From positions 9,659-73,658 of the forward strand of contig JAFTXO010000027.1 in assembly GCA_017461765.1 (NCBI GenBank): a stretch of 64,000 nucleotides of DNA, written 5' to 3'. The position numbers and the translations under genes were made by a program. Each line of letters opens with the position of its first letter. Position 1 is the stretch's first letter. The stretch is from Clostridia bacterium (GTDB taxonomy: Bacteria; Bacillota; Clostridia; Oscillospirales; CAG-272). Shown here piece after piece: positions 1,337 to 37,469 of the stretch. The notes below the pieces were generated by a model. The model saw only the letters and a list, made by a program, of their open reading frames with translations, was not told where the DNA came from and made no database searches.

Positions 1337-1475
1337 AAACGTTGTTGAAAAAAAGATCCCGATAGATAGGGTGATGTCCTTAGCGGAGAATTTGAAAAAC
1401 ACCATCAAGTGCGAGCATCGCATTTGACTAGTCAAATGTATTTGGGCTAAGCCCAAACCCATATTACAAGCAGAA

Positions 1476-1527
1476 AGAGCAAGAGTAAAAGGATAAACTT
1501 CCTTCTATTCTTGCTCTGTTCGTTTTT
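1476..1527 (+). terminator. Rho-independent terminator-like hairpin inside the DUF1846/recG gap
   Basis: AGAGCAAGA (1476-1484) pairs with TCTTGCTCT (1509-1517). An inner AAGGA/TCCTT stem is present, followed by GTTCGTTTTT. Confidence 0.5.
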
Positions 1528-1691
1528 ATGAATGAATTGATGCTTACGCATCATGAATTGGCTTCGCCATGATTTCTCGCTTCGCTCCATGAATTGAATT
1601 GCAACCAATGTGCCGTAAGGCACAATTCATGCCGCAGGCAATTCATGAAAGCACCGCTTTCAATTCACGCAGCCGTGAGGTTGCAATTCAT
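1528..1691. repeat. Compound palindromic element E1 (word CATGAATTG / CAATTCATG, 4+4 copies with GC mini-hairpin spacers)
   Basis: Left-arm words start at 1528, 1552, 1568 and 1587. Right-arm reverse-complement words start at 1623, 1639, 1661 and 1684. Spacers are ATGC-TTAC-GCAT, GC-TTC-GC (x2), the apex GTGCC-GTAA-GGCAC, GCC-GCA-GGC and GCAGCC-GTGA-GGTTGC. Confidence 0.75.
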
Positions 1692-1748
1692 AGCGTGTTC
1701 TCCGTTAAGGATAACACGCAATTTAGTCGGGATCTTTGTATTTTTTGA

Positions 1749-3902
1749 TTACGATATCGTTTGGGCATTTAAATTGCAAAGCTCCGAGACCTTTTTTCGC
1801 AATAGCTCATGCTCAGGCTTTGAGAGGGAGCGATCGTCTTTTAGTATTTCTCTTGCACATTCAAAGGCGTTGTGCAAAAGAATATTGTCGTTACAGGATT
1901 TCGCAATATTGAACCCGAGCTCACCCGATTGCCTTATCGAGTCGCTCGATGAGAAAAAGTCACCGGGACCTCTCATTTGAAGATCCTTTTCGGCAATAGT
2001 GTAGCCGTCGTAGGTCGTGTGCATTATCTGTAAGCGCTCCATTGATTTAGGACTTCTTGCATCCGAAACGAGAACACAAAACGACTGATCCTTACCTCTG
2101 CCGACACGTCCTCTTAGCTGATGTAGCTGCGAAAGACCGAAGCGCTCTGCATTTTCAACTATCATAAGCGTAGCATTCGGTACGTTTACACCGACCTCGA
2201 TAACAGTGGTCGAAACGAGAATGTCGATCTCGCCGTTTGCAAAGTGCATCATTATTTCGTCCTTTTCCTTGCATTTCATCTTTCCGTGTAAGAACTCAAC
2301 GGTAAGGTCGGGAAAGATATTTTCTTTAAGCTCCTTGGCGTAGTCAACAGCGGCTTTAAGCGGGGGAGTGTCGTCCTTTATATCAATTATGAACGGATTA
2401 TAGTCGGGAGTGTCAAGATCGTTTTCCTTCTTTTCCTCAACACTCGGACAAACTATATATACTTGATTTTTGTTTTCAACCTGCTTTCTTATAAAGGCGT
2501 TAAGACGCGATCTGTATGATGAATCGACACTGTATGTGTTGACCTTTTTTCGACCGGGTGGCATAGTGTCGATAAGAGATATATCAAGATCTCCATAGAT
2601 CATAAGCGAAAGTGTACGAGGGATCGGTGTCGCACTCATAACGAGCACGTGCGCGCTTGCGCTTTTCTCGGCAAGCTTCGCCCTCTGCATAACTCCGAAG
2701 CGGTGCTGCTCATCTGTTATTACAAGACCGAGATTTTTGAATTCCACACCCGTCTGTATAAGAGCGTGTGTACCTATTACAAAATCGGTATCTCCGCTTT
2801 TCAGGCGGGAGAGTATCTGATTTTTTTCTTTTTTCGGCGTAGATCCCGTTAGAAGCTCGCACTTGAGACCGAGTGAATTAAACATAGGAAAAAGAGAATC
2901 ATAATGCTGAAAAGCAAGTATCTCCGTAGGTACCATAAGCGCACACTGGTATCCGTTTTTGCACGCAATATAAGCGGCAACGGCGGCACATACGGTTTTT
3001 CCGCTTCCTACATCGCCGACAATTATTCTGTTCATAGGCCTTGTGAACATGGAAAAATCTGCGTCGGAAACGGCGTTTGTCGAACACATATCGCCACATA
3101 TATCGGATATTACCTTCTTTTGAGCATCGGTCAACTCATACGGAAGCATATCAACAAGAGGAGAAGCATCACCGTCATTCATTCGCGGCGCAAGCTTTGA
3201 GCTTGATACGGTTTTCATCTGTGAAAGCGAAAGCGCGAAAATAAAAAGCTCGTCAAAGGTAAGACGCTTTATGGCAGCGTGTAATGCTTCGTCACTTTCG
3301 GGAAAGTGTATGTTTTCAAGAGCAAAGGGAAGAGCACATAAATGATATTTGTATCGGATATCTGAGGGGATGTATTCTTTAATAAGAGTGGATATGCAAG
3401 GACGTATCTGAGAAACGAGCTTTGATATATATTTCTGAGTTACTCCTTGAAAAAGAGGATATATAGAAACAAAAGGCGGAAGCTCCTCCTCGCGTACACA
3501 AGGCTCGTAAGACGGTGAATTCAGCGACAGGGTGCGCTTTTCCTTTACGATCCTGCCCCAAAATCTGAATGTTGCGCCCGTTCTGAATACATCCTTTAAA
3601 TAGTTTTGATTGAAATAAGTAACGGTAATGCTTCCGCTATCGTCAAAGGCGCGAAATTTTAAAATATTCATACCTCTGCGTATCATAGCCACCTTCGGCT
3701 CGGAAGCGACCGTCAAAACGTAAGAGTGAGGCATATTATCAAACACAGGGGTGTCTATTTTATATACATCCTTGCGGTTTTGGTAGGCTCTCGGAAAATA
3801 ATAGAGCAGATCGTTTACCGTAAATATTCCGTTTTTATTAAAATATTGCTCGTACTTAGGGCCTACTCCGTATAGCTCGCCTATCGGTGTATCAAGTGTC
3901 AT
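1749..3902 (-). CDS. recG: ATP-dependent DNA helicase RecG
   Basis: 717 aa. The N-terminal wedge region (MTLDTPIGELYGVGPKY...), Walker A GDVGSGKT, DEQHRFG and the QLHQLRGRVGRG motif are typical of RecG. Confidence 0.93.
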   Translation of the reverse strand: MTLDTPIGELYGVGPKYEQYFNKNGIFTVNDLLYYFPRAYQNRKDVYKIDTPVFDNMPHSYVLTVASEPKVAMIRRGMNILKFRAFDDSGSITVTYFNQNYLKDVFRTGATFRFWGRIVKEKRTLSLNSPSYEPCVREEELPPFVSIYPLFQGVTQKYISKLVSQIRPCISTLIKEYIPSDIRYKYHLCALPFALENIHFPESDEALHAAIKRLTFDELFIFALSLSQMKTVSSSKLAPRMNDGDASPLVDMLPYELTDAQKKVISDICGDMCSTNAVSDADFSMFTRPMNRIIVGDVGSGKTVCAAVAAYIACKNGYQCALMVPTEILAFQHYDSLFPMFNSLGLKCELLTGSTPKKEKNQILSRLKSGDTDFVIGTHALIQTGVEFKNLGLVITDEQHRFGVMQRAKLAEKSASAHVLVMSATPIPRTLSLMIYGDLDISLIDTMPPGRKKVNTYSVDSSYRSRLNAFIRKQVENKNQVYIVCPSVEEKKENDLDTPDYNPFIIDIKDDTPPLKAAVDYAKELKENIFPDLTVEFLHGKMKCKEKDEIMMHFANGEIDILVSTTVIEVGVNVPNATLMIVENAERFGLSQLHQLRGRVGRGKDQSFCVLVSDARSPKSMERLQIMHTTYDGYTIAEKDLQMRGPGDFFSSSDSIRQSGELGFNIAKSCNDNILLHNAFECAREILKDDRSLSKPEHELLRKKVSELCNLNAQTIS

Positions 3903-35903: not shown

Positions 35904-35979
35904 TGGGATATAGCCAAGCGGTAAGGCACCAGACTTTGACTCTGGCATCTCGGTGGTTCGAACCCACCTATCCCAGCCA
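35904..35979 (+). tRNA. tRNA-Gln (anticodon UUG), CCA encoded
   Basis: The acceptor stem TGGGATA pairs with TATCCCA. The anticodon stem CCAGA pairs with TCTGG, with loop CTTTGAC (TTG at 35936-35938). T-arm is GGTGGTTCGAACCCACC and the 3' end is GCCA. Confidence 0.93.
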
Positions 35980-36020: not shown

Positions 36021-36215
36021 AATGATGTTTGCCTTCGGCAAATGATGTTGGCTTCGCCAATGATGACGGCTACGCCTAATAATGCATGGCTACGCCACAT
36101 TTTATGGCAAACATCGCATCATTGCGGCACGAAGTGACGCAACATCATATTTGCAAAACAAATGCATCATATCGCCGTAAGGCGATGCATCATTGAAGAT
36201 ATACAAGGCTTCGCC
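36021..36215. repeat. Compound palindromic element E2 (word AATGATG / CATCAT(T), 4+4 copies with GC mini-hairpin spacers)
   Basis: Left-arm words are at 36021, 36041 and 36059, plus a degenerate copy at 36079. Right-arm words are at 36117, 36143, 36165 and 36188. Spacers are TGCC-TTC-GGCA, GGC-TTC-GCC, GGC-TAC-GCC (x2), CAC-GAA-GTG, CGCC-GTAA-GGCG and GGC-TTC-GCC. Confidence 0.75.
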
Positions 36216-36244
36216 TTGATTTATTGGCGGAAGTGTGGTATATA
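36216..36244 (+). promoter_or_regulatory. Sigma-A promoter directly abutting E2
   Basis: TTGATT (36216-36221), 17-nt spacer, TATATA (36239-36244), preceded by TGG. Confidence 0.5.
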
Positions 36245-36268
36245 AACAAGAGATTGGAGGTGACGGTA

Positions 36269-36802
36269 TTGAAACGCGAAGAAGCCTTTTATTATATGAA
36301 TTTGTTGTTATTGGGCTTTTCTGATGGCTATGATGATTGGTTGAATTATTATTTAGAAACAGAATCTCCATTGAGTGATATTGTATTAGAACTTTCTCTG
36401 TGCGGCTCGGATGTAAACAAAACCGTATCCCTGTTACACAATTACTGTACGGAACAAGAATTTGACAAGTCTGTTTCTCATGACAAATTGCGACTGTTTT
36501 TCAAAGACGCCTATCATTCAAATAGGATGAGCAAAGAAAAAGTACTATCTACTATGTACCGTCTGTCCTTGAATGTTGGTGATCCAGGAGATTTTGATAT
36601 TAAATTATGGGGTAGCATGTACTATCTCGATTATTACTACGGCTTGGCTTTAGATGGCGTAATCCCGATGGAAAATTTTGATTTTGCTTTTTTCTCATAC
36701 CTTGATAATGGAACGCCGCTCGATTCAGATCTTATTTTGAGAAAAAACATTAAAAAGAAACCGTCATTCCTTGATAAAATTAAAAGCTTTTTTAAAAGAT
36801 AA
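36269..36802 (+). CDS. Hypothetical protein (all-alpha looking, immunity-protein-like small cassette gene)
   Basis: 177 aa when started at TTG 36269, 8 nt after GGAGGTGA (the track ORF starts at 36224). No family recognised. Confidence 0.55.
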   Translation: MKREEAFYYMNLLLLGFSDGYDDWLNYYLETESPLSDIVLELSLCGSDVNKTVSLLHNYCTEQEFDKSVSHDKLRLFFKDAYHSNRMSKEKVLSTMYRLSLNVGDPGDFDIKLWGSMYYLDYYYGLALDGVIPMENFDFAFFSYLDNGTPLDSDLILRKNIKKKPSFLDKIKSFFKR

Positions 36803-36902: not shown

Positions 36903-36915
36903 GTTTATCAGTTAT

Positions 36916-37110
36916 ATTCGCCTTATGGCGAGTTCTATTGCTTTGCAGTGATATTACTTCGTAGTGATATTGCCTTCGGCAGTTGAAAGTAACAGGGCGA
37001 ATATAATATCACTGTGAGCGATGCGAACAATATCACTATGCGTAGCATAATATCACTTCAACGCAGTTGAAATATCACTTAATCGATGCTATACTTATTA
37101 TGAGGTGATA
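36916..37110 (+). repeat. Compound palindromic element E3 (word GTGATATT / AATATCAC, 4+4) including promoter and RBS
   Basis: Left-arm words are GTTATATT, GTTCTATT and GTGATATT (x2). There are four right-arm AATATCAC words. The 3' end carries TTGAAA (37067-37072), 17-nt spacer, TATACT (37090-37095) and GAGGTGA (37102-37108). Confidence 0.8.
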
Positions 37111-37113
37111 ACA

Positions 37114-37469
37114 ATGTCAAATAGCATTTTAAGAGATAAATCAAAGGATTTTGCAAAGCAAATTGTCATTCTTTGCAAAAACATAAAAGCCAATTTAAGG
37201 AATCAGTTTTAACTAATCAGCTTTTGCGTTCCGGCACAAGCATTGGTGCTAATATACACGAAGCTCAATACGCACAAGGCAAGAAGGATTTTATATCAAA
37301 GCTTGAAATTGCACAAAAGGAATGCTACGAAACCGAATATTGGCTTGAGCTTTTATTTGAAACAGGCTATATGTCAGAATCGGAATACAAGCCTATTCAA
37401 AATGAATGTGGTGCTATTCGCAGAATGTTAATTTCATCTATAAATACCACTAAAGCCAATTTGGAGTAA
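37114..37469 (+). pseudogene. Four-helix-bundle protein (23S rRNA intervening-sequence protein family), frameshifted
   Basis: The N-terminal part MSNSILRDKSKDFAKQIVILCKNIK is in one frame (stop at 37210-37212). The rest, SQFKESVLTNQLLRSGTSIGANIHEAQ...ETEYWLELL, is in another frame. The junction is the A4 run at 37185-37188. Confidence 0.7.

Follow-up and report, generated by a model that had tools for sequence, protein, structure and literature searches.

A gene-less, two-arm element of iterated words and mini-hairpins beside recG in a Clostridia bacterium, its likeness to Gut-1 and the PF05635 genes adjoining its relatives

What kind of element fills the 412-nt gap between two convergent genes of a Clostridia bacterium (a DUF1846 gene at 26-1336 on the plus strand and recG at 1749-3902 on the minus strand), where short AT-rich words alternate with tiny GC hairpins and are then repeated as their own reverse complements? 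The locus, called E1 here, lies in a 64,000-nt stretch of contig JAFTXO010000027.1 (the window, to whose first letter all coordinates refer). The initial annotation placed it at 1528-1691 and saw four words, an apex hairpin and four inverted words, which it took to fold as one long stem studded with side hairpins and could not assign to any named repeat. The sense orientation of E1, as given by the conserved signature of its family, is the minus strand, and the order in that sense is H0 (1719-1693), arm A (1691-1623), H4 (1622-1611), arm B (1610-1528) and T1 (1517-1476); the parts are listed below from left to right.

1348-1362: A-run and GATCCCGA (1355-1362), left half of an 8-bp stem bracketing the E1 module, pairing with TCGGGATC at 1727-1734
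1371-1475, minus strand: non-coding tail of the E1 module, with a palindrome CATTTGACT/AGTCAAATG (1421-1438) and a GGGC-TAA-GCCC hairpin (inverted-repeat search)
1476-1517: hairpin T1, AGAGCAAGAGTAAAAGGA / TCCTTCTATTCTTGCTCT (inverted-repeat search; conserved in loci L090, L193 and L196)
1528-1610, minus strand: arm B, the conserved arm, with antiwords in the minus reading, CAATTCA-ATTCATGGAGCGAAGCGAGAAATCATGGCGAAGCCAATTCATGATGCGTAAGCATCAATTCATTCAT (sequence and alignment of copies)
1532-1539, 1553-1560 and 1589-1596, plus strand: exact words ATGAATTG (read from the sequence)
1539-1552: spacer GATGC-TTAC-GCATC
1560-1568: spacer GGC-TTC-GCC
1569-1576, plus strand: degenerate word ATGATTTC (read from the sequence)
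1579-1585: spacer GC-TTC-GC, of 2 bp only
1595-1601, plus strand: TGAATTG overlapping the third ATGAATTG (read from the sequence)
1595-1606: 3' strand of helix P1 in the sense (minus) orientation, TGAATTGCAACC on the plus strand, 12/12 complementary to 1679-1690
1611-1622: H4, the "apex" hairpin TGCC-GTAA-GGCA (sequence and folds of both strands)
1623-1630, 1639-1646 and 1684-1691: exact reverse-complement words CAATTCAT (read from the sequence)
1623-1691, minus strand: arm A, the variable arm, with words in the minus reading (W1 1691-1684; W2 1668-1661, CGTGAATTG; W3 1646-1639; W4 1630-1623) and H1-H3 between them
1631-1639: spacer GCC-GCA-GGC
1647-1661: spacer GAAAGC-ACC-GCTTTC
1661-1668: degenerate reverse-complement word CAATTCAC (read from the sequence)
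1669-1684: spacer GCAGCC-GTGA-GGTTGC, with one G.T pair
1679-1690: P1, its 5' strand when read in sense, made up of W1 and the 5' half of H1; plus-strand letters GGTTGCAATTCA (inverted-repeat search)
1693-1719, minus strand: H0, an 11-pair hairpin with one mismatch, GCGTGTTCTCC-GTTAA-GGATAACACGC, immediately 5' of W1 in the sense orientation
1727-1746: TCGGGATC (1727-1734) and a T-rich run, closing the bracketing stem on its right side; the stop codon of recG is 2 nt away

The compound palindrome is indeed there: six exact and two degenerate words stand within 160 nt, with GC mini-hairpins between them. On both strands of the 64-kb window taken together, ATGAATTG occurs exactly eight times, six of these inside the 160 nt of E1, against 4.46 per 64 kb in the shuffled window, i.e., 0.011 per 160 nt (Poisson P(≥6) = 2.6e-15). 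The "four plus four" count stands if one degenerate word per arm is admitted and fails for exact words alone, exact copies of the word in the form CATGAATTG amounting to 2+2 only; in the same way, every spacer does form the tiny stem with a loop of 3-4 nt that had been described, even if that at 1579-1585 is held by 2 bp.

The limits and the symmetry that had been proposed have to be redrawn. The true E1 unit exceeds 1528-1691 and spans about 1371-1719. Nor is it symmetric, since H0 stands at its 5' end and, of the two arms, A is variable and B conserved. Window positions 1371-1719 are 87.5% identical to positions 1823-2171 of locus L196, where the copy lies between unrelated convergent genes and within an analogous split stem that differs in sequence and is set between an A-run and a T-run; such bracketing stems were seen in these two loci only. 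T1 might serve as a bidirectional terminator, because GTTCGTTTTT comes next on the plus strand and TTTCTGCTTG on the minus strand, and it may also represent the 3' end of a putative E1 transcript; E1 is best read as carrying a terminator-like hairpin of its own where relatives have a gene. A simple terminator scan of 1250-1850 called no terminator-like site, T1 included, partial T-runs in the E1 region being present at T1 and at the outer bracket only, and a promoter scan at E1 found none.

Exact three-word patterns brought up six IMG/VR loci and at least 120 metagenome stretches, and among the matches listed there are about 50 TGAATTG-type elements (gut metagenomes, phage contigs), most commonly of the 4+4 form, in which the grammar recognized in the initial annotation, i.e., word and GC mini-hairpin iterated and then inverted, recurs. 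One phage fragment (L089) has three of them in the gaps around its large-terminase and portal genes, and another phage (L093) has one adjoining the large-terminase gene; the latter also has, on its gene-sense strand, single-arm units built of other words (AATGATGT, GTGAAGT and CGATATG). Because of these, the basic unit is to be regarded as one arm, as in the original definition of Gut-1 (see below), and E1 as its two-arm version. Permuted (B then A) and tandem copies occur among the relatives as well.

Once oriented by the conserved signature, the two-arm TGAATTG elements reveal one common layout. A long hairpin H0 of arbitrary sequence precedes W1 by 0-3 nt in at least 25 of the 37 elements; it is followed by an arm A of four words and freely varying mini-hairpins (76 distinct spacer sequences, with a stem of at least 3 bp in 71 of 121 spacers vs. 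19 of 121 shuffled ones); H4 and a short linker then lead to a segment with complementarity to W1 and the 5' half of H1; and arm B is near-identical across non-orthologous loci (CAATTCA-ATTCATGGAGCGAAGCGAGAAATCATG-GCGAAGC-CAATTCATGA-TGCGTCAGCA-TCAATTCAT). With conservation confined to B and variation to A, the two arms are not equivalent. From copy to copy the hairpins have unrelated sequences, and what is kept is the non-palindromic word of 7-9 nt. Covariation among relatives, which the initial annotation had proposed as a check, is found both in the mini-hairpin stems, which exceed the shuffled ones, and in helix P1, formed by W1 and the first antiword of arm B and running 2-5 bp further into hairpin 1. 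Such an extension is available to W1 in 29 of 37 cases and to the other words in 16 of 123 (p = 1.4e-13), and it covaries (CAACC/GGTTG, CCTTA/TAAGG, CCC/GGG, CGCC/GGCG, CCTT/AAGG); in the RNAalifold consensus of 28 elements, P1 is the sole long-range helix. Two further ideas about the arms were discarded: an ORF running through arm B (ATGGAGCGAAGC...), because indels among copies break its frame, and hypermutation of arm A, the differences between near-identical cassettes looking like mosaic leader recombination (L233 resembles L132).

The statement that no named repeat fits cannot be upheld, as the grammar of E1 is that of Gut-1 (RF01706). At Rfam gathering thresholds, the whole window yields tRNA only and nothing at E1, and in E-value mode Gut-1 is the sole repeated match there, hitting both arms on opposite strands: arm A at 1619-1693 (minus strand, 23.0 bits, E = 0.05) and arm B at 1530-1600 (plus strand, 14.7 bits), each below the gathering score of 50 bits, so that E1 is no member by this measure. 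By the other measure, four words and three short hairpins backed by covariation, E1 together with its relatives does belong. The likeness extends to R-UGA-W-type words, four in number, with three short GC hairpins between them, to pyrimidine-rich loops and to the association with the gut; the difference lies in the word itself, AUGAAUUG in E1 and GUGAAAU or GUGAUAU in Gut-1, which departs from the family consensus yet keeps the R-U-G-A-W core.

The published consensus of Gut-1 is (G)UGAAAU-hairpin repeated three times (Weinberg et al. 2010, PMC2864571), and the same work classes it as a non-cis-regulatory RNA, mentioning neither a second arm nor PF05635 genes. The published alignment with its flanks (PMC2864571), however, has seed loci that carry words and then antiwords, beyond the one arm of the model (e.g., BAAZ01000095, where GUGAUAUU words are followed by AAUAUCAC words with hairpins of their own); one seed comes after a tRNA and a terminator, and some seed contigs have tandem copies about 240 nt apart. 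The Rfam model describes one arm, with H0, P1 and arm B outside it, and on the best explanation Gut-1 as defined in Rfam corresponds to half of a single subtype within a word-and-hairpin family. E1 itself is a divergent, gene-less variant of a known but uncharacterised motif class that is related to Gut-1 and widespread in gut bacteria and phages. A two-arm architecture, a P1 or a link to PF05635 cassettes is not described in the searchable part of the literature.

E1 is not alone in its genome. The grammar scan for any word, another check that had been suggested, found two more elements, E2 and E3, within the 64-kb window:

36021-36195, plus strand: E2, AATGATG three times and TAATAATG, then CATCAT(T/A) four times (Gut-1 model, 20.1 bits)
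36910-37079, plus strand: E3, word AGTGATATT and antiword AATATCACT, laid out as the published Gut-1 seeds (grammar scan)
37115-37463, plus strand: PF05635 (23S_rRNA_IVP / four-helix-bundle) gene directly after E3, frameshifted near 37205 (Pfam E = 1.8e-26; tblastn, three-frame translation)

E2 directly follows a tRNA (35904-35976) and that tRNA's terminator, just as the Gut-1 seed mentioned above does, and E3 comes close to the Gut-1 threshold on both strands (48.8 bits on plus, 36909-36975; 42.3 bits on minus, 37025-37116). As each of the three has its own word, one organism has at least three elements with three words, which share an R-T-G-A-W core and are nearly uniform inside each element. 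A promoter-like sequence lies between element and next gene at E2 and in locus L216.

The gene that follows E3 points to what the complete copies might be. Out of 28 TGAATTG elements with enough downstream sequence, six have a PF05635 gene downstream and none has one on the other side, and in those six the element, read from A to B, abuts the ribosome-binding site of the gene. Approached from the protein, all the Clostridia-like loci among the matches listed in the PF05635 search (L216, L217, L222 and L223) have Gut-1-type arrays directly upstream, L223 repeating the layout of one published Gut-1 seed (tRNA, terminator, arrays). In distant lineages, tandem words of 7-8 nt precede the PF05635 gene and their reverse complements follow it, without hairpins; such flanking arrays are found in L218/219, L220/221, L234, L237 and L243, and the loci include Flavobacterium, Chitinophagaceae and Kapabacteria. 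Word arrays beside PF05635 genes occur in Clostridia-like, Bacteroidota and GC-rich lineages. In Flavobacterium and Chitinophagaceae, the PF05635 gene is squeezed into an operon, 25-30 nt from the genes on either side; in Clostridia, both arms are on the same side of the gene and precede it. E1 has no PF05635 gene, nor did tblastn detect a decayed remnant of one in its tail (1371-1475).

PF05635 proteins are Avd-like four-helix bundles (PMC10053308), and the domain is also that of the ORF in the 23S rRNA intervening sequence (IVS) of Coxiella, which its authors called a selfish element (PMC4990558). It has further been reported inside cas operons, and the searchable literature assigns it no function outside diversity-generating retroelements (DGRs). 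The proteins are abundant (more than 8000 matches, as a lower bound, in each search), and the solved structures closest to the PF05635 protein are 2RLD and 2GSC, of five chains each. PF05635 genes often sit on very short contigs, as repeats are wont to do.

In how many contexts does such a cassette occur? An exact 117-aa protein (P0037) with an identical leader is found after purH, after tuf (here outside the terminator) and in at least four other contexts, and the segment common to its copies spans about -220 to +40 relative to the gene, comprising H0, both arms and the ribosome-binding site. A set of 80 recG loci from other species is without the element, and the nearest species representative (L005) keeps the DUF1846-recG synteny, its gap holding an HTH gene and ordinary terminators and no element. 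GenBank phages had no blastn match to E1 or to a copy taken from a phage. At the 4+4 cores of 35 elements, target-site duplications and terminal inverted repeats were as in shuffled controls (mean direct repeat in the flanks 8.7 vs. 8.2 in the control, inverted repeat 8.7 vs. 8.0). Isolated cases occur, as in L213, which has a 10-nt direct repeat at its boundaries.

The elements are strongly co-oriented with transcription: the A-to-B direction matches that of upstream ORFs in a ratio of 22:5 and that of downstream ORFs in a ratio of 15:5 (37 vs. 10 in total), and arm B ends within a few nt of a ribosome-binding site and start codon in many loci. The last antiword can pair with the start region over 9 bp in L207 (UUCAUAAAA/UUUUAUGAA) and over 6 bp in L224 (UUCAUU/AAUGAA), and with the Shine-Dalgarno sequence at E3 over 7 bp (UAUCACU/GGUGAUA), pairing with AUGAA being partly expected by chance because many genes begin with AUGAAA. 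Pair types are a weak guide to the strand: sense-strand H0 stems have four G.U vs. zero A.C pairs, and the stems of the mini-hairpins, which consist almost wholly of Watson-Crick pairs, do not favour G.U when read in the orientation of the words (17 G.U vs. 21 A.C; in a second count the mismatches were too few to judge). A promoter directly before H0 was considered as a general feature and dropped: one is present in L144 and L162, and overall -10 boxes upstream of H0 are not enriched (4/28 vs. 4/28 in the control).

The reading that we put forward, and to which we give about an even chance, takes E1 for a solo member, lacking a gene, of a family in which complete copies serve a small multi-copy PF05635 cassette as its leader or intercistronic spacer and act as RNA. 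Complete cassettes would encode the Avd-like four-helix-bundle protein in gut Clostridia and their phages, and the RNA running from arm A to arm B would be the likely active form, which for E1 would be the minus strand, downstream of recG. In the proposed fold, H0 (1719-1693) would come first; the 12-bp P1 (1690-1679 with 1606-1595) would close a multiloop, in which mini-hairpins H2-H4 would keep the identical AUGAAUUG words between them single-stranded; arm B, conserved and made of antiwords, would be next, and T1 (1517-1476) would form the 3' end. Where a PF05635 gene follows, its start codon or its Shine-Dalgarno sequence could pair with the last antiword, and from this pairing we infer that words and antiwords may compete and so set its translation. 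Avd binds nucleic acid, which makes the PF05635 protein a candidate reader of the repeated words, and an oligomeric PF05635 protein would be the most plausible factor to do so. As E1 is without a downstream gene, such a translational switch cannot apply to it, and its own role, if transcribed, might be that of a decoy for the same factor, or else it may be a relic of insertion. An RNA-level role of the family as a leader or intercistronic module is favoured rather than proven, because of the co-orientation with genes, the covariation of P1, the abutment on ribosome-binding sites and the pairing of the last antiword. Counting against the leader reading, promoters were neither found at E1 nor enriched before H0, a promoter-like sequence parts element and next gene at E2 and in L216, and only about one fifth of the TGAATTG elements precede a PF05635 gene; the reading also leaves the identity of the words within one element unexplained.

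Several other explanations deserve to be weighed against this one. That E1 is a stand-alone RNA or single-stranded DNA "bottle-brush", in which each left word pairs with its mirror-image right word in a ladder of helices with side hairpins, was the fold originally proposed, and there is something to be said for it: all words are complementary to all antiwords, folding of 1520-1700, which had been suggested as a check, gave negative z-scores on both strands (-61.8 kcal/mol, z = -4.29, on the plus strand; -58.2 kcal/mol, z = -2.59, on the minus strand), and the unconstrained best fold of the plus strand has some nested word pairs. Because the words repeat, however, several folds of E1 are close in energy, and the nested ladder is not the preferred one, since a fold constrained to it is less favourable by about 9 kcal/mol, whichever strand is taken (-62.7 vs. 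-72.0 kcal/mol at best on plus; -62.8 vs. -71.6 on minus). Forcing P1 on 1524-1724 costs at most 0.5 kcal/mol on either strand, and P1 closes a multiloop in the best plus-strand fold of 1520-1700. The covariation of W1 with the first antiword is incompatible with the ladder, and neither single-arm units devoid of a partner arm nor a conserved arm B next to a variable arm A suit it, which leaves the bottle-brush very improbable. Nearly as hard to sustain is a compound, bidirectional terminator or insulator between DUF1846 and recG, the GC hairpins of which would halt or delay RNA polymerase whether it arrives from the left or from the right. The place of E1 between convergent genes and its hairpins with A/T runs (T1; the bracket 1355-1362 / 1727-1734) would agree with such a function, as would the position of E2, E3 and the Gut-1 seeds after intrinsic terminators. 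The mini-hairpins, however, precede AUGAAUUG-type words and not U-tracts, the scan of 1250-1850 having found no terminator, and most relatives lie between co-directional genes, in phage operons or directly before a ribosome-binding site, where termination would be harmful; neither word identity nor P1 would be explained, and we consider this reading highly unlikely.

A role at the level of DNA is a serious rival, because of the two-fold symmetry, the purely Watson-Crick stems and the arrays that flank the gene in other phyla, even if we hold it to be unlikely on balance. The words would here either bind a protein at repeated sites or make up the inverted arrays at the ends of an IVS- or MITE-like mobile element, of which E1 would be a non-autonomous copy; direct words at one end and inverted ones at the other would resemble the ends of Tn7 and Mu, and the hairpins would form in single-stranded DNA or cruciforms. 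The near two-fold symmetric architecture means that either strand could fold, and the same covariance model does match both strands; stems that are nearly pure Watson-Crick and free of G.U bias are what DNA hairpins would give; and in Bacteroidota and L218-L221, words and antiwords flank the PF05635 gene in the manner of terminal repeats. Identical cassettes in at least six contexts, the E1 module in two, each time within a split stem with an A-run and a T-run, the permuted and tandem copies and the frequency of PF05635 genes on very short contigs all fit mobile DNA. Against it speak the lack of a consistent target-site duplication or terminal inverted repeat at the 4+4 cores, the lack of an associated transposase, the strong co-orientation with transcription, a P1 that joins W1 to the nearest antiword and not end to end, and the Clostridia arms that are both on one side of the gene; an irregular word spacing (16-24 nt) would, furthermore, poorly suit cooperative binding to double-stranded DNA.

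Comparison with known systems helps to place the leader reading. IVSs have complementary flanks, and versions without an ORF exist. E1 and the L196 copy, two loci in all, lie inside a split hairpin and IVSs inside the loops of rRNA helices, and the family of E1, like an IVS, would be a selfish, structured insertion associated with PF05635/S23p (Coxiella, PMC4990558); unlike an IVS, E1 is outside rRNA, its arms consist of iterated words and mini-hairpins, and in Clostridia both such arms precede the ORF. Described DGRs have no counterpart of the word arrays, and no reverse transcriptase or template/variable repeat pair was seen beside the PF05635 cassettes. The E1 family resembles REP/BIME in being multi-copy, intergenic or intercistronic, hairpin-forming and of alternating orientation. 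REP, however, conserves the palindrome itself, whereas here the hairpins vary and the non-palindromic word of 7-9 nt is conserved; no RAYT gene was seen near the elements. That E1 is not REP/BIME, BOX, RUP or CRISPR, as had been stated, holds: it is without the conserved palindromic unit of 20-40 nt, with its conserved head, of REP/BIME, and words of 7-9 nt, self-complementary spacers of 7-16 nt and an inverted second arm are not those of a CRISPR array, whose direct repeats measure 23-50 nt and whose unique spacers are of similar length. ARG, Fur, Rex and cre boxes, Chi sites, k-turns, C/D boxes, RNase Y sites and start-region mimics were also considered for the words, and all of them leave the word differences within one genome unexplained. 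By analogy, the closest functional parallels may be CsrB/RsmZ and the TRAP-binding leader, in which identical short motifs displayed by flanking hairpins suit an oligomeric binder; the motif here is a different one, it stands between the hairpins rather than in their loops, the same molecule carries a complementary arm in cis and the binder is putative.

What could all this mean for the biology of the family? Tentatively, and with considerable doubt, the word arrays may be the cognate nucleic-acid partner of pentameric Avd-like PF05635 proteins, with which they would constitute a very widespread, previously undescribed class of small selfish cassette. If that is true, the hairpin-bearing arrays of Clostridia would be Gut-1 and the Bacteroidota arrays would be their counterparts without hairpins; the cassettes would insert where intergenic DNA is transcribed, in operons, in the late regions of phages, in the loops of terminators and, in the form of the classical IVS, in the helices of rRNA; and gene-less copies such as E1 would be non-autonomous derivatives. 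The link to PF05635 also suggests that a far wider family of insertions exists, of which the classical IVSs of 23S rRNA represent one face. Gut-1 has been an orphan motif since 2010 (a "certain RNA" without a cultured host), and its link to PF05635 gives both a testable hypothesis: an oligomeric protein that reads iterated words in a self-folding leader. The elements are, moreover, dense in phage packaging modules and break assemblies, so annotating them would help the annotation of gut phages and metagenome-assembled genomes.

Two further word-and-hairpin elements, E2 and E3, accompany E1 in the window; the features in question, together with a palindrome associated with E1, are:

1421-1438: perfect 18-nt palindrome, CATTTGACTAGTCAAATG, within the E1 module's non-coding tail
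36021-36195: E2, word-and-hairpin element, word AATGATG
36910-37079: E3, word-and-hairpin element, word AGTGATATT
37115-37463: PF05635 (Avd-like/23S_rRNA_IVP family) gene directly after E3

E2 is preceded by a tRNA (35904-35976) and that tRNA's terminator, an order of tRNA, terminator and element also seen at the published Gut-1 seed BAAZ01025322 and at the compared locus L223, and a single 192-aa ORF (36224-36802), for which no Pfam match was found, sits between E2 and E3. The PF05635 gene following E3 is divided between two reading frames near 37205, one of them holding the N-terminus (MSNSILRDKSKDF...NQF*) and the other ...LTNQLLRSGTSIGAN..., a split for which pseudogenisation, faulty assembly and programmed frameshifting are all possible explanations.

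A recurrent location of such elements seems to be downstream of rlmD-type genes: at L130 (860-915), and likewise at L136 and L200, the ORF of an RlmD-like rRNA methyltransferase upstream of the element continues through H0, the long hairpin just 5' of the first word, and has as its stop codon the UGA of that very word. PF05635 and PF05958 matches are found within the same protein in one database entry (P0098).

Elements were also seen back to back, with three adjoining ones at L153 (9180-9765), each having its own word (ATGATAT, TGAATTG and TCGATAT), three tandem E1-like copies at L122 (1356-1896), and two tandem GTGAAAT elements in the upstream 420 nt of L216, a pair resembling the ~240-nt period of the 2010 Gut-1 seed contigs. 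Eight loci (L100, L114, L124, L140, L155, L184, L208 and L209) show a permuted order, in which five antiwords (reverse complements of the word) are followed by a T-rich spacer and five words, with long terminator-like hairpins at both ends.

PF05635 genes of Bacteroidota and Kapabacteria are flanked by tandem AT-rich 7-8-nt words, with the reverse complements downstream, and two of these loci, L234 and L237, have the gene squeezed in between the genes of an operon. Word arrays at such loci are:

L243, 640-800: about 20 copies of AATTRAGA
L234, 770-800 and 1182-1215: word arrays

DUF4379, AbiTii-like, DUF2513 and DUF3791 genes lie 3' of the cassette encoding P0037 (a 117-aa PF05635 protein) in L224, L227 and L231, and the neighbourhood downstream of some P0037 cassettes looks like a defence island. 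Most close PF05635 homologues are found on contigs of just 0.5-1.2 kb, which suggests that PF05635 cassettes, in a repeat-like manner, break metagenome assemblies.
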